From: Candidatus Izemoplasmatales bacterium
GTDB lineage: Bacteria > Bacillota_I > Bacilli_A > Izemoplasmatales > Hujiaoplasmataceae
DNA: 64,000 nucleotides
Reading direction: 5' to 3'
Assembly (NCBI GenBank): GCA_050949045.1
Contig: JBMNEZ010000001.1
Coordinates: 32,001 to 96,000 of the forward strand
Below are positions 25,821-30,546 of the stretch, piece after piece. Position 1 is the first letter of the stretch. Each line of letters starts with the position of its first letter. The notes below the pieces were generated by a model. The model saw nothing but the letters and a program-made list of their open reading frames with translations. It did not search any database and was not told where the DNA came from. A program made the position numbers and the translations under genes.

Positions 25821-26985
25821 CATCCTTACAATCTTCAAAAAAGAATGGGATCGGGTTATTAAAGACAAGCGATTAGTTTTTTCGGTGATATTGTTGCCGG
25901 GATTGATGATCTATATTCTCTATTTTTTTATCGGTTCCGGGTTGACCTCGTTATACAGCGAGTTGGATGAACGCATTGCGATGGTCAATGCACCCCAAGG
26001 GTTTGTGTCTTTTGTGGAGACAATTACCGAAACAGAAGCGTTGGAATATTCCGAGATTAATGAAACTGACATCGAGGCTTATAAAGAAAAAATAGACAAT
26101 GGCGATTGGGAGTTGGTGCTTGTTTTCCCCAGCGATTTTTCCGATCAGGTAGCCGCTAAGGAAAAGCCTACGGTGAATTTGTATTACAACATCAACGAGA
26201 TTGCCTCAAGTCAGATCTACGACTATTATTCGGGATATCTTGAATTTTACCAACAACAACTCGCCTACGAGATATATGGTGAAATCAAGGCTTTCGAACA
26301 GGCGGCCGATTCCCTTCCCGTAGATCAGGAACAGGCGACCGGAATGATGGTGTCGATGCTATTGCCAATGCTAGTATTGATGTTCCTGTTTAGTGGCGCG
26401 ATGTCGATTGGGCCGGAAGCGATTACCGGAGAGAAGGAAAGGGGAACAATCGCAACCTTGTTGGTCACACCGGTCAAGCGCAACCAGATCGCCTTGGGGA
26501 AGATTTTGGGGCTTGGGGTCTTGTCGCTCATCTCCGCTTGCTCATCCTTTATTGGCGTTTTGTTGTCCATGCCTAAACTGTTCGCGATTGAAGACATTGA
26601 CATATCTATATATTCAGTTACCGATTACTTACAAATTTTGTTGATTCTTTTCTCGACGGTGTTTGTCATTGTCGGCATTATTTCGGTCATCTCCGCCTTT
26701 GCGAAGAACATGAAAGAAGCGGGAACCTTGATTGTGCCTGTTTACTTGCTGACGATTATCATCGGGGTTACTTCGATGTTCAGGCAAGGAGCAGTATCCA
26801 ATCCCTTCTTATATCTCATCCCTCTTTATAACTCGAATCAAACCATGATCGCCATTTTCACTTTTGATCCGTTATCGTGGCTATACACGCTTATCAGTGT
26901 TATAGCAAACATCGTCTATCTCATATTGCTTGTGATTTTGCTCAACAAGATGTTCAACAGCGAAAAGATCATGTTCAGTAAATAG
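25813..26985 (+). CDS. ABC-2 permease (NatB-like)
   Basis: IFKKEW, GEKERGTIATLL, multiple TM segments. Confidence 0.9.
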   Translation: MRNILTIFKKEWDRVIKDKRLVFSVILLPGLMIYILYFFIGSGLTSLYSELDERIAMVNAPQGFVSFVETITETEALEYSEINETDIEAYKEKIDNGDWELVLVFPSDFSDQVAAKEKPTVNLYYNINEIASSQIYDYYSGYLEFYQQQLAYEIYGEIKAFEQAADSLPVDQEQATGMMVSMLLPMLVLMFLFSGAMSIGPEAITGEKERGTIATLLVTPVKRNQIALGKILGLGVLSLISACSSFIGVLLSMPKLFAIEDIDISIYSVTDYLQILLILFSTVFVIVGIISVISAFAKNMKEAGTLIVPVYLLTIIIGVTSMFRQGAVSNPFLYLIPLYNSNQTMIAIFTFDPLSWLYTLISVIANIVYLILLVILLNKMFNSEKIMFSK

Positions 26986-27013
26986 TTTTTCATTGTAATA
27001 TATTCGAAATACT

Positions 27014-27090
27014 ACAGGAGTTTCACGTGTTGCGATTGATTTTGTTTTTGCAAAATCAATATCCTTCATCGGCGAACTCCTGTTTTTTTT
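27014..27090 (+). terminator. Long nested hairpin with U-tail
   Basis: ACAGGAGTT...AACTCCTGT enclosing ATTGATTTTG/CAAAATCAAT, followed by a T-run. Confidence 0.6.
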
Positions 27091-27227
27091 GGATTGAGGA
27101 TGGGAGGAGTATGTCATAATAATGCTAAAGGGGGAAAACGCAGTAACCAAAAGGGTTTCAGAGTTTCCACAAAGTTTGAAATTTTAAAAAATACTGCTCA
27201 ATCGTTATGTTTTGTAATCGGTGCCAT

Positions 27228-27324
27228 AAAGTGATATTGATTATGGACTATTACAGATGGCATGCGATTGAATAATTTTAAGTGACATAAGTGTCACTTC
27301 GTGGTACAATAATGTCACTTTGGA
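27228..27324 (+). promoter_or_regulatory. Promoter overlapped by (A/G)TGTCACTT operator-like boxes
   Basis: -35 GTGACA 27282-27287, 17 bp, TACAAT 27305-27310; boxes at 27280-27288 (inverted), 27291-27299, 27312-27324 and a variant at 27228-27237. Confidence 0.7.
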
Positions 27325-27340
27325 AAGAGGTAATAAGACA

Positions 27341-28675
27341 ATGAATCTAGGAAAAGAAACTGAAACTCTTGAATTTAAAAAATCAACGAGTGAGATAAAA
27401 ACTGCTATGATTTCCATAGCGTCTATATTAAATAAGCACGGTATCGGTACATTGTATTTCGGGGTCAAGCCCAACGGTGATGTTGTTGGGCAAAATGTGT
27501 CGGAATCGTCTTTAAGAGATGTTTCTAGAGCGGTTTATGAAGACATCAAGCCGCAGATATACCCTGCCATTGAAGAAATTTTGATGGAGGGGAAGCAATT
27601 GATAAAGGTTGAATTCAGCGGTGATAGCAAACCATACTCCGCAGCGGGCAGATACTATTTGAGAACTGCAGATGAAGATAAAGAGGTGAGCCCCGAAGAA
27701 TTAAAAACTTTTTTTGAGGCAAACAAATACCGCACAAAATGGGAAAGTGGCAAATCCGACACTTTATCAAAACAAGTTGACAAGCTTGCAGTAAAGTCGT
27801 TTTGGCAAAAAGCGATAAACGCCGGAAGATTACCCGAAGGCAGGTATACCACGCAGATTATCTTAAAAAGATTCGGTCTTGTTAAAGATGAGCATTTGAC
27901 AAATGCCGGTGAAGTTCTCTTTGGCGATACAAGGTCCGTTTCTCTAAAAGTCGGTATATTTGCAACGGACGAAAAATTGACAATTCTTGATATGAAATTA
28001 TATGAGGACAATATTTATAATCTGTTGAAGACGGCTGAAGATTACATATTTAAGAATATACGATGGAAAGTTGAAATTATTGAATCGGAAAGAAGTGAGA
28101 TTCCTGAAATACCGACTGCAGTGATAAGAGAGGTTTTGGCAAACAGTTTTGCACACGCAATGTATGGAAGCAGGACAAGTCATGAGATATGTATTCATCC
28201 AAGTATGATAACTATATATAGTCCGGGAGATTATGCCAGTAGATACAAACCGGAAGAATATATTAAAGGCAATGTAGAGTCTGAGATAAGAAATGCGACA
28301 ATTTCAAAAATTCTGTACTTGAGCAAATACATAGAGCAGTTCGGCAGCGGTTTCAAGAGAATAGATAGCCTATGTAAAGATTCCGAAATCAAATATTCTT
28401 ACGAAAACAAAGATAATGGATTTAAATTTATAATATATCGACCACAGATTCAAAGTGACATTTTAGATGTCACTTTGGATGTCACTTTGAACGGAACAGA
28501 GAAAGCGGTTTATGCTATTTTAAAACAAAAATCGGATTCTTCAAGAGAAGAAATAGCTGATAAGATTTCTAAAACTGTAAGAACGGTTCAAAGAGCACTC
28601 AATTCTCTTGTAGAGAAGGGTTATATCAGACGAGTCGGCTCTAAACAGAATCCGGTATGGGAAGTGTTGAAATAG
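27341..28675 (+). CDS. AlbA_2 (Schlafen-like) + HATPase_c_4 + C-terminal winged-HTH protein
   Basis: ETETLEFKKS, GTLYFGV, REVLANSFAH, RNATI, IEQFGSGF, and HTH SREEIADKISKTVRTVQRAL...RVGS. Confidence 0.88.
   Translation: MNLGKETETLEFKKSTSEIKTAMISIASILNKHGIGTLYFGVKPNGDVVGQNVSESSLRDVSRAVYEDIKPQIYPAIEEILMEGKQLIKVEFSGDSKPYSAAGRYYLRTADEDKEVSPEELKTFFEANKYRTKWESGKSDTLSKQVDKLAVKSFWQKAINAGRLPEGRYTTQIILKRFGLVKDEHLTNAGEVLFGDTRSVSLKVGIFATDEKLTILDMKLYEDNIYNLLKTAEDYIFKNIRWKVEIIESERSEIPEIPTAVIREVLANSFAHAMYGSRTSHEICIHPSMITIYSPGDYASRYKPEEYIKGNVESEIRNATISKILYLSKYIEQFGSGFKRIDSLCKDSEIKYSYENKDNGFKFIIYRPQIQSDILDVTLDVTLNGTEKAVYAILKQKSDSSREEIADKISKTVRTVQRALNSLVEKGYIRRVGSKQNPVWEVLK
28451..28489. repeat. Intragenic 11-bp repeat ATGTCACTTTG (one inverted plus two direct copies, 12-bp period)
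   Basis: CAAAGTGACAT 28451-28461, ATGTCACTTTG 28467-28477 and 28479-28489; encodes QSDILDVTLDVTL. Confidence 0.9.
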
Positions 28676-28715
28676 AGATATCTGATTAAATTTCGAGTTG
28701 AAAAGGAGATATTAT

Positions 28716-29561
28716 TTGACTTTAGAAAAAGTTATTTCAGAACTGAATTATGTAAAAGATGTGGAGCAAGCGGTTTTTCAAAAAATCAGCAGAAATAAAA
28801 AAGCAATTGAAGAAATTGCAAAAACCGCATATCAGGGAGATAATTTTGATTTTGCATTACTTAAGTGTATGCCCTTAACTCGTTTATCTGTTGTCACCTA
28901 CCTTTTGATTAGTAAATATGATGAATACAGTACAAAAGGAATTCCGGACAGGATTATTTTTGACACATTTGAAGATGTTTCTCTACGAGCTAATTTATAT
29001 TATAAAAAAACAGGCAAGGCGGGCATTTCAAAAGATGATGTTATTTGGTTCCGACACATTATGAATGTTTCGATATTCAAAATAGGTTCTCTGCAATTTC
29101 AGCCATTTGAGATGATATATTTGGATGAAGATACGATTGGTGAGTCTTATATGTCATTTACGAAAGAGCAGAAAGAGTCTTTGCCAAACGGTTCACCCGT
29201 TATTAACTGCCATATTCAACGAGGTGTAGATTTAAATCCGAAATCAATTGAATTATCTTTTCAAAAAGCAAAAGTTTTTTTCTCGGAAATTTATCCAAAA
29301 CAAGAGTATAAAGCTTTTCTGTGATATAGTTGGATGCTATATCCGCCCATGTTGGAAAAGCTATCCGAAAAATCAAATATTAAGCAGTTTGCTGATAAGT
29401 TCGCTATTATTGGAGATTGTCCTGATCCGGAGCAGGCAACAGAATTTATTTTGGGCTATAACAAGAGAAAAGTAATTCCTGAAAATACGAGTTCTCTTCA
29501 AAAAATGGCATTCGAACATCCGGAATGGCTGGGCTTTGCGTGTGGAATTATTTGGATATAG
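28716..29561 (+). pseudogene. Acyltransferase-domain (GNAT-like C-terminal, DUF5596-type) gene split by one in-frame TGA
   Basis: FKIGSLQF, INCHI, AFL*YSWMLYP, SNIKQF, TSSLQ; both ORFs are in the same frame, TGA 29322-29324. Confidence 0.8.
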
Positions 29562-29865
29562 ATTTTAGTCTGTTGTACCTGAACTTAAGAGGACCCTTGA
29601 TGTCAGACAAACGCTATACTTGGGAAAGGTTGATTTTACCGGGTTTTATTAATATAAAAACAGCTAAAAACAGGGCTTTATTTTCGACTTCTTCGCAGGG
29701 ACAATAGTTTTTTTGTTATCAGTGTTTTTTAAGAAGGCAAAGGGCAAGATGTCTAAAGCGCTTTTGAGTACTTTAGTTTGTCAAAGCGGTGTGTTTTATT
29801 GTATGTCAATCCAAAAAATGGTATCATATTCATAAACAAAACAGTATCAGAAGCGAGATGGGACA

Positions 29866-30546
29866 ATGGTTTTGATCGAAGCAAAGAAAGTCGAAAAGGA
29901 ATACATTACCCAAGCTGGATCGATCCGGGTTTTAAAGAACATCAACCTATGTGTCAAAAACGGGGAGTTTGTCGGCATCGTCGGACCTTCCGGTTCGGGA
30001 AAGTCAACTCTATTATATGTGCTCAGTGGTCTGGAAAAGGCCACCTCCGGCGAAGTTATACTGTTTGGAAAATCAACCGCAGAGATGAATGATGCTGACA
30101 TGAACGCGATCCGCAAATCAAAGATCGGTTTTGTATTCCAGTTCTATAACCTCTTGCCCAACTTGACTGTTCTTGAGAATGTTGAGTTGCCACTGGTAAT
30201 TGCCAGGCAAACCGATTTGTCCAAAGCGATCGAAGCTTTGAAAATGGTCAATCTTGATAAGCATTTAACATTGTATCCCGCCCAACTCTCGGGAGGCATG
30301 CAACAAAGAGTGGCCATCGCCAGAGCGATGGTCACGAACCCCAAAATCCTATTCGCGGATGAACCGACTGGGAATCTTGATTACCAAAGCAGTATTGAAA
30401 TCATCGAGATTCTCAAGAACTTGAATCAGAAACAGCAGACGACGATTGTGCTGGTGACCCACAATCTCGAGCATATGGCTTACTGCTCACGAAAAATAGA
30501 AATCATTGATGGAAATATCGGCGAAGATGAAAGAACTAGGTTTTAA
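29866..30546 (+). CDS. ABC transporter ATP-binding protein (LolD/MacB type)
   Basis: [31 protein letters not shown]. Confidence 0.93.

Follow-up and report, generated by a model that had tools for sequence, protein, structure and literature searches.

Auxiliary operators that lie in coding DNA are known from lac O2 in lacZ and gal OI in galE, and in the Rep-iteron plasmids and the ParR-parC systems winged-helix or related proteins bind tandem repeats and repress their own promoter via the same word, with direct and inverted layouts coexisting and specificities that diversify between relatives. The iterons of the lambda O gene fall between the two domains of O, whose DNA-binding domain is N-terminal, and vary among the lambdoid phages along with the O type. 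Here we analyse a gene in a stretch of 64,000 nucleotides from Candidatus Izemoplasmatales bacterium (contig JBMNEZ010000001.1; hereafter the window, within which all coordinates are given, on the + strand unless stated otherwise). It encodes a protein with a Schlafen domain, an ATPase domain and a C-terminal winged helix-turn-helix (HTH), and it carries copies of one 12-bp word, or iteron, both over its predicted promoter and, in frame, in the linker that precedes the HTH. The two arrays are real and under constraint at the DNA level, and their sequences vary together from one family member to another and in step with the recognition helix of the HTH.

Judged by analogy, the lambda O-gene iterons are the closest analogue of this locus, followed by the auxiliary operators of the lac O2 type and by the iteron and centromere autoregulators. 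The four iterons of the lambda origin are located inside the O gene, and O binds them, as described in a preprint (bioRxiv 10.1101/2025.04.02.646746), and the likeness lies in short direct repeats inside the coding sequence of the protein that binds them, binding being what we propose in the present case. The lambda repeats are a replication origin rather than an operator and have no mirror at the promoter of the gene, whereas here the repeats keep a strict in-frame period of 12 bp, the same unit lies over the promoter, and the HTH is C-terminal. No sign of a replication function was seen at the locus, which is a chromosomal cassette with no replication genes seen, no test aimed at origin function having been made. 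With lac O2 and gal OI the locus shares a second, downstream operator inside a coding region (a proposed one, here) that could loop via an oligomeric repressor, but those are single sites in the gene of the regulated enzyme and not in-frame linker repeats in the gene of the regulator, and we know of no family-wide co-variation described for operators of that type. The Rep and ParR repeats differ in being non-coding, and their proteins are replication or partition factors, not Schlafen-ATPases. None of these systems joins in-frame repeats in its own linker, a mirror array at the promoter and family-wide co-variation, and the literature searched, with subscription journals outside its coverage, gave no description of in-frame linker operator repeats mirrored at the gene's own promoter. 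The matching across relatives with different repeats points to a putative self-targeting control circuit that has not been described before.

The supra-domain formed by SLFN_AlbA_2 and the PF13749 GHKL ATPase has been named 'Schlatpase'; according to the accessible part of the preprint (bioRxiv 10.64898/2026.05.29.728809), it occurs mostly in small proteins, over 90% of its C-terminal tails are HTH, and the Schlafen-ATPase with HTH tail is the commonest prokaryotic form of an antiviral-immunity domain found from bacteria to humans. That part of the preprint does not establish the function of the small HTH forms and holds nothing on linker repeats or promoter sites. The protein analysed here carries all three domains of the Schlatpase-HTH type (SLFN_AlbA_2, HATPase_c_4 and winged HTH), in the same order as in COG2865 and PDB 3LMM.

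Iterons over the promoter and in the linker

The coding sequence runs from the ATG at 27341, which is the true start codon, to the stop at 28675 (444 aa). Three iterons lie over its promoter, which like the other promoters in this work is a sigma-70-like prediction and not mapped. Iteron 1, AAGTGACAT (27280..27288, - strand; the reverse complement of ATGTCACTT), is inverted and covers the -35 hexamer GTGACA (27282-27287), which falls within it. Iteron 2, GTGTCACTT (27291..27299, +), occupies the 17-bp spacer and makes with iteron 1 the palindrome AAGTGACA-N4-TGTCACTT, and iteron 3, ATGTCACTTTGGA (27312..27324, +), lies at about +1, right after the TG-extended -10 hexamer TACAAT (27305..27310, +; 10/12 consensus matches). 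Sites of the TGTCACTT type lie at 27280, 27292 and 27313 over the promoter, and further upstream there is a distal degenerate copy, AAAGTGATAT (27228..27237, - strand), of which relatives carry a better version, AAAGTGACAC. Repeated sites thus cover the -35, the spacer and the +1 of the predicted promoter, as in the operator of an autoregulated repressor, and the relatives keep them.

Inside the gene, the 12-bp word GAT GTC ACT TTG encodes D-V-T-L, and its reverse complement CAA AGT GAC ATC encodes Q-S-D-I, in frame, so that the linker sequence Q371-S-D-I-L-D-V-T-L-D-V-T-L383 (QSDI-L-DVTL-DVTL) consists of a single DNA word written three times, once inverted and twice direct. The inverted copy, CAAAGTGACATT (28451..28462, - strand), encodes Q371 S D I and includes the 11-mer CAAAGTGACAT at 28451-28461, and the two direct copies of GATGTCACTTTG lie on the + strand at 28466..28477 (D376 V T L; 11-mer ATGTCACTTTG at 28467-28477) and at 28478..28489 (D380 V T L; 11-mer ATGTCACTTTG at 28479-28489). 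The tandem repeats therefore fall in the interdomain linker (28451-28489, residues 371-383) of the coding sequence, an arrangement of iterons within their own gene. It is not that of a contingency locus, since with a 12-bp unit any change in copy number stays in frame; the linker copy number does vary among relatives.

These sites had been listed in an earlier note on this DNA, made from the letters alone, and every one that it claimed for promoter and linker is present where it was placed, including the weak variant at 27228-27237. So are two further features that it described, namely the 13 bp identical between promoter and coding sequence, ATGTCACTTTGGA of iteron 3 recurring in a linker copy, and the frame-preserving 12-bp period that encodes DVTL-DVTL before the winged HTH.

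In the window TGTCACTT occurs 8 times against 1.66 expected, a number reached by 0/100 shuffles, and 6/8 of these copies fall in the Schlafen-ATPase gene and its promoter; the exact 11-mer ATGTCACTTTG has 6 copies in the 1.36-Mb genome, 4/6 of them at this locus. Chance resemblance in AT-rich DNA could draw on the finding that at least 13 nt are common to an open reading frame (ORF) and its own 200-bp upstream region in 6/313 ORFs of 350-600 aa of the same genome. A single shared 13-mer is not extreme, so that what carries the case is the triplication, present both over the promoter and in the linker, together with the comparative data; with the motif conserved in relatives and the pattern repeated with other units, these data refute chance, to which we give a negligible probability. 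The absence of a second cluster of the unit anywhere in the window genome is as expected for a dedicated autoregulator. Three further ORFs of that genome have 16-19 nt in common with the 200 bp that precede them (G000:C1, 326028-327198 (-), 835928-837632 (+) and 1180447-1181950 (+); 0-based on the scanned strand, the - one counted along the reverse complement); they may be low-complexity sequences or more cases.

As regards the protein, Pfam places SLFN_AlbA_2 at residues 6-116 (PF04326, E = 1.9e-18), HATPase_c_4/GHKL at residues 283-362 (PF13749, E = 1.2e-9) and a winged HTH at residues 382-436 (HTH_36, HTH_24 and TrmB), all above cut-off. PDB 3LMM, an uncharacterised protein, is the top solved structural match (E = 2.5e-20; profile match E = 2.5e-11), and the fold matches of the 444-aa protein include, after 3LMM and Schlafen N-domains, histidine-kinase catalytic ATPase domains; Foldseek gave matches to the N-domains of SLFN11, 12, 13, 14 and 5. 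In an AlphaFold2 model built on 44 homologues (mean predicted local distance difference test, pLDDT, 86.3), the winged HTH has three helices and a two-strand wing at residues 385-442 (coding region 28493..28672, +, residues 385-444), and Pfam and the model together place the recognition helix, TVRTVQRALNSLV, at about residues 413-425. The pLDDT falls below 50 solely at residues 371-381, inside the coil 367-384 that forms the pre-HTH linker; this linker is thus predicted to be disordered, and structure probably constrains its peptide sequence little. PADLOC and NCBIfam gave no named defence or regulator family above cut-off. Contigs from RNA libraries cover the gene in parts, which does not prove transcription, these being contigs only, without starts, ends or levels.

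From the sequence comparisons, we consider it probable that the HTH binds the 12-bp iterons and represses its own promoter, with the in-frame copies as a second operator. The C-terminal winged HTH would recognise the 12-bp iteron, here (A/G)ATGTCACTTTG, and protein bound at the -35, spacer and +1 iterons would switch off its own transcription. The three linker copies would act as the second operator 1.15 kb downstream, the 12-bp period preserving the frame, and could strengthen repression through looping or through a block to RNA polymerase; they would also hold a copy of the target in physical linkage with the domain by which it is read. The earlier note had offered much the same interpretation, which the present data support in part, HTH binding, autorepression and a loop or roadblock being what we infer from them.

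Conservation of the DNA word in close relatives

A scan of species-representative genomes gave 25 loci, 11 of them full length at 76-96% identity; the labels of these 11 name several different phyla, and digester metagenomes are the source of most. An orthologue is present in 0/70 genomes of the window's own taxonomic family, where the one match at E <= 1e-20 is 27% identical. With relatives spread across phyla and no orthologue in the family, the gene is therefore mobile, and a synteny-based comparison was impossible for want of same-family orthologues. The three-site promoter layout and the linker copies are kept in 11/11 full-length relatives, with 1-2 substitutions in two promoter sites, iteron 1 included, in L019. 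In three of the four relatives that diverge most, DNA homology to the window begins at about the first iteron (27280-27281 in L016 and L020-L022; 27268 in L019); its other end, in L016 and L020-L022, is a few to about 20 bases away from the stop codon. In L020-L022 a T precedes AGTGACA in promoter and linker alike, turning the linker Q into H, and in L082, a locus of the VTS type with the linker unit GATGTCACTTCT, the promoter has ATGTCACTTCT twice and one inverted copy.

Among 12 sequences, DVTLDVTL shows the lowest synonymous difference of 434 eight-codon windows (0.059 vs a gene mean of 0.32), and the linker codons AGT, GAC, GAT, GTC and ACT are invariant. A wider subfamily set of 121 proteins (72-100% identity) has linkers with two inverted copies and one direct, two of each, three inverted and none direct, or four direct. 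Both x-SD and VT-x are present in 117/121, as Q-SD with VT-L in 85, I-SD with VT-Y in 17, crosses in 3 and other pairs in 12; the I/Y set may be one clade and hence possibly a single event. TTG is the reverse complement of CAA, and TAT that of ATA, so that the change of peptide leaves the symmetry of the DNA intact. A search of 401 genomes of the order of G590 gave no DNA for the VTY-type variants, in which promoter co-variation was to be examined, and L082 was used instead. Taken together, these patterns indicate that what is kept in the linker is the DNA word and not the peptide. The proposal in the earlier note that the tetrapeptide repeat is a by-product of a DNA array is thereby supported, by synonymous sites that are frozen and by orientation flips that retain the DNA word.

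A different origin of the repeats would be slippage, the tetrapeptides being kept as a flexible, adjustable spacer and the upstream copies being unrelated or remnants of a partial duplication. The disorder predicted for the linker would suit such a spacer, as would the number of units, 1 to 4 or more among close relatives in proteins of 440-480 aa, and a distant subfamily (see below) has repeat linkers without upstream copies. A protein spacer does not account for codons fixed at 4- and 6-fold degenerate sites, for flips of orientation that alter the peptide (DVTL to QSDI) and retain the DNA, or for matches that are limited to the repeat units, with no flanking homology, and that recur with at least 11 units, and we regard this origin as highly improbable.

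The frozen synonymous sites could also reflect an RNA element, a hairpin formed in the mRNA by the linker copies that would pause ribosomes between domains or control decay, the promoter likeness being secondary. The region 28440-28500 folds at -19.2 kcal/mol (z = -3.79), 0/200 shuffles folding as well, and the Q/L and I/Y pairing keeps the arms complementary. Such a hairpin is, however, impossible in L047, L061, L067, L068, L074, L075 and L086, which have direct repeats only, and protein P0088 has three copies in one orientation; the upstream copies mostly precede the predicted transcription start and hence are not in the RNA. An RNA element fits the lineage of the window gene, but these cases make it very unlikely as the basis of the arrangement. 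Rfam gave nothing meaningful over 26500-30200, and an internal promoter in the linker is unlikely, there being no acceptable -10 after GTGACA on the + strand and an antisense match of 9/12 only.

A related locus, L018, has a copy of the gene that is truncated at its 5' end, and a second cluster, CCAAAGTGACAAAAATGTCACTTTGAATGTCACTTTGAA (L018:3577-3665), directly adjoins the stop codon of this copy; the cluster resembles a promoter-type palindrome fused to linker copies and precedes a diverged remnant of the HTH.

Matching of linker and upstream repeats across the family

We searched 399 + 399 genomes from the class and phylum sample of the window and 401 genomes around G590, which gave homologues of 29-62% identity. 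The test set comprised 43 complete loci with at least 150 bp upstream (23-100% identity), among them the window gene and the distant relatives L008 (own-genome paralogue) and L010 (same-family homologue), and a locus was taken to pass when the longest word common to its linker and its own 200-bp upstream region beat every background window of that locus. A period-12 linker repeat is found in 23/43 loci, and 16/43 loci pass, 14/23 with such a linker vs 2/20 without (Fisher p = 0.0012, for loci that as kin are not independent). The words common to linker and upstream region coincide with the repeat units, of which there are at least 11 different sequences: ATGTCGTAAAT in L037, L040 and L064; AAGTGACATTTG in L038; ATAGAGTGACA in L042, L044 and L046; TGTCCATATA in L050 and L051; ATGTATCGATAA in L053; ATGATACAATAA in L058; AATGATAGAATA in L059; TGATACTTTAAA in L060; AATGATAAGATA in L061, L067, L068, L075 and L076, with identical runs of 26-40 nt; AATGGCGAAATA in L045 and L074; AATGGCACATTA in L086; and ATGTCACTTCT in L082, which is counted among the at least 11 units.

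The upstream unit overlaps the region from -35 to +5 of the best sigma-70-like promoter in 15/24 loci, and in most of the remaining loci it ends shortly before the -35; for this count the units were set by eye, automatic choice being noisy in AT-rich linkers. Several units include a promoter-like element of their own, either GTGACA (-35-like) or TGATANAAT (like a TG-extended -10). Relative to the linker array, the upstream array has the same, the opposite or a mixed orientation, depending on lineage. The units also follow the recognition helix, in the classes RT[VI]QR/GTGACA, SSRS[VI]QR/GTCGTA, SEK[ST]VQR/GTCCA and ITIYRH-like/GATAAG, and the upstream units of L036, L052 and L077 match the class of the same or a similar helix (the exact unit in L077, a shared core in L036 and L052).

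Several observations weigh against the proposed control by binding to both arrays. In 9/23 loci with a repeat linker the shared word fails to beat the background: in L044, L045, L050 and L051 a word of the same unit ties with it at 10-11 nt, the upstream copies of L048 and L071 are degenerate, and L008, L047 and L063 have none. Repeats of 12-bp period stand upstream in L036, L052 and L077, where linker copies are absent or decayed, and linker copies are therefore dispensable in some lineages. The upstream units of L037, L040 and L064 lie just upstream of the -35, a position that would also fit activation, and the match between helix and unit is confounded by kinship, the identities of the N-terminal part and of the HTH being correlated (r = 0.77, 946 pairs). 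In a distant subfamily, that of own-genome paralogue B, repeat linkers are common and an upstream match is found in 1/10 loci (L095), so that linker repeats can exist for another reason. Finally, direct repeats that flank most of a gene cause deletions, which are observed (see below) and are a cost of the design. For the own-genome paralogues L008 and L009, no linker word of at least 9 nt recurs in the 300-bp upstream region, and their units cluster nowhere else in the genome.

The linker-upstream arrangement is thus not universal in the family. The earlier note had suggested that homologues with different linker repeats be checked for matching upstream motifs, and that HTH and target are inherited together. 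The first check came out positive in the main family, with its at least 11 units, and negative in the distant paralogue subfamily and in L036, L052 and L077, which lack linker copies; the second suggestion gains support from homologues that have their own units upstream.

If the rule that the 12-bp word in the linker is the word over the promoter holds across the family, it would predict the DNA target of each member from sequence alone and would supply at least 11 natural helix-to-site pairs for studies of winged-helix specificity. It would be a rare case of a peptide sequence dictated by a DNA-binding site for the same protein, binding being proposed, and would explain the odd tetrapeptide repeats of the subfamily, with the frequent HTH-only remnants as crossover products.

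A more specific role, which we think unlikely, would be that of a cis-capture device, in which the linker iterons would load the first protein molecules onto their own gene and pass them by looping to the promoter 1.15 kb upstream. Coupled transcription and translation would make the HTH within about 200 bp of its own sites, and a potentially toxic Schlafen-ATPase would then be shut off at once, copy by copy, on entry of the cassette into a naive cell. As HTH and target copy are less than 100 bp apart, they could move and diversify together, which, if true, would yield mutually insulated paralogue specificities; genome G079 carries several gene copies with different units. Cis-capture, if true, would apply in general to the Schlafen architecture that is commonest in prokaryotes.

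Two observations concern genomes that appear to read TGA as Trp. L096 and L097, of the distant subfamily, have several GTGGTAGAA / CTACCAC repeats in the 200-bp upstream region and none in the linker, possibly an operator of another type. Each of the homologues in G496, G506 and G550 (L065, L066, L070) and in G282 and G335 (L096, L097) has 2-6 TGA codons in frame, which would fit TGA=Trp lineages in the class of the window genome.

Exchange between the arrays and the surrounding cassette

To judge from the joints found, promoter and linker arrays do cross over. Four loci are exact products of such an exchange: L028 and L029 fuse the +1 copy with the first direct linker copy, the alignments overlapping by the shared 13 nt, and L030 and L032 fuse the spacer copy with the last one in the linker, where the overlap is 8 nt. 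Each of the four has lost 1.15 kb and retained promoter, repeats and HTH, and L028 sits 4 kb upstream of a full-length copy on the same contig. Short HTH-only proteins are common in the protein collection, where the promoter-linker fusion protein P0162 occurs on 16 contigs and other forms (P0219, P0220, P0224, P0227) begin right at the repeats, some starting M-DVTL. One metagenome contig, which may come from another organism, joins 27234 to 28478 at 88% likeness. In L060, L061, L067, L068, L074, L075 and L076, 21-40 nt are identical between the arrays, fitting recent conversion, and L053 and L060, with 61% identity in the N-terminal part and 32% in the HTH, have different units.

All of these observations would also be expected if the arrays were a by-product or a device of recombination, with gene conversion keeping them alike, crossovers deleting or exchanging the Schlafen-ATPase part so as to leave or re-use a promoter-iteron-HTH module, and the intragenic copies having no regulatory role. 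We consider this improbable as a full account. Array orientations differ by lineage, so that no single rearrangement outcome is conserved, and deletion destroys the gene; conversion alone, moreover, leaves unexplained the core-promoter position, the match of unit and helix, and the upstream arrays without linker copies. Recombination is compatible with autorepression through the two arrays, as the mechanism of co-variation, and crossover between the arrays is a likely route by which the units co-vary. A further protein, P0205 (93 aa), has its first 23 residues joined in frame to an NVTLDVTL linker and the HTH, with a left end unlike that of the promoter-linker fusions.

Together with a split NAT_N/GNAT_C acyltransferase gene (28698..29561, +; a 208-aa frame at 28698-29324 and a 75-aa frame at 29334-29561), the Schlafen-ATPase gene makes up a 2.6-kb cassette (27106-29700), at the ends of which lies a conserved junction of ~215 bp. 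The left junction (27106..27200, +), which is where homology to other loci begins, is context only and outside the proposed circuit; the right junction lies at 29569..29700 (+), and in tandem arrays the left-junction sequence directly follows the right-junction sequence. The junction folds no better than shuffles (z = +1.22), with no attC-like hairpin, and of the 17 ORFs in 20 kb of the L100 array none gave a recombinase domain. An integron gene cassette was therefore rejected, there being no attC-type fold and no recombinase in these 20 kb; the array is integron-like without the hallmarks of an integron.

In genome G591 (L100:3755-17385), at least 6 junctions punctuate 13.6 kb of one- or two-gene cassettes beside luxS and smpB, with DUF4143 ATPases, a NUDIX protein, a nucleotidyltransferase, GNATs and a Schlafen-ATPase gene as cargo, and there the acyltransferase is intact as one 287-aa frame (L100:13814-14677). 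A second cassette with similar ends is found in the same genome as the window (G000:C1:258499-260917) and encodes a 426-aa ATPase with a P-loop motif; going by eye on the N-terminus, this ATPase looks like the AAA_14/DUF4143 cargo of G591. The cassette junction itself holds a promoter-like site, TTGACC-N18-(TG)TCATAAT.

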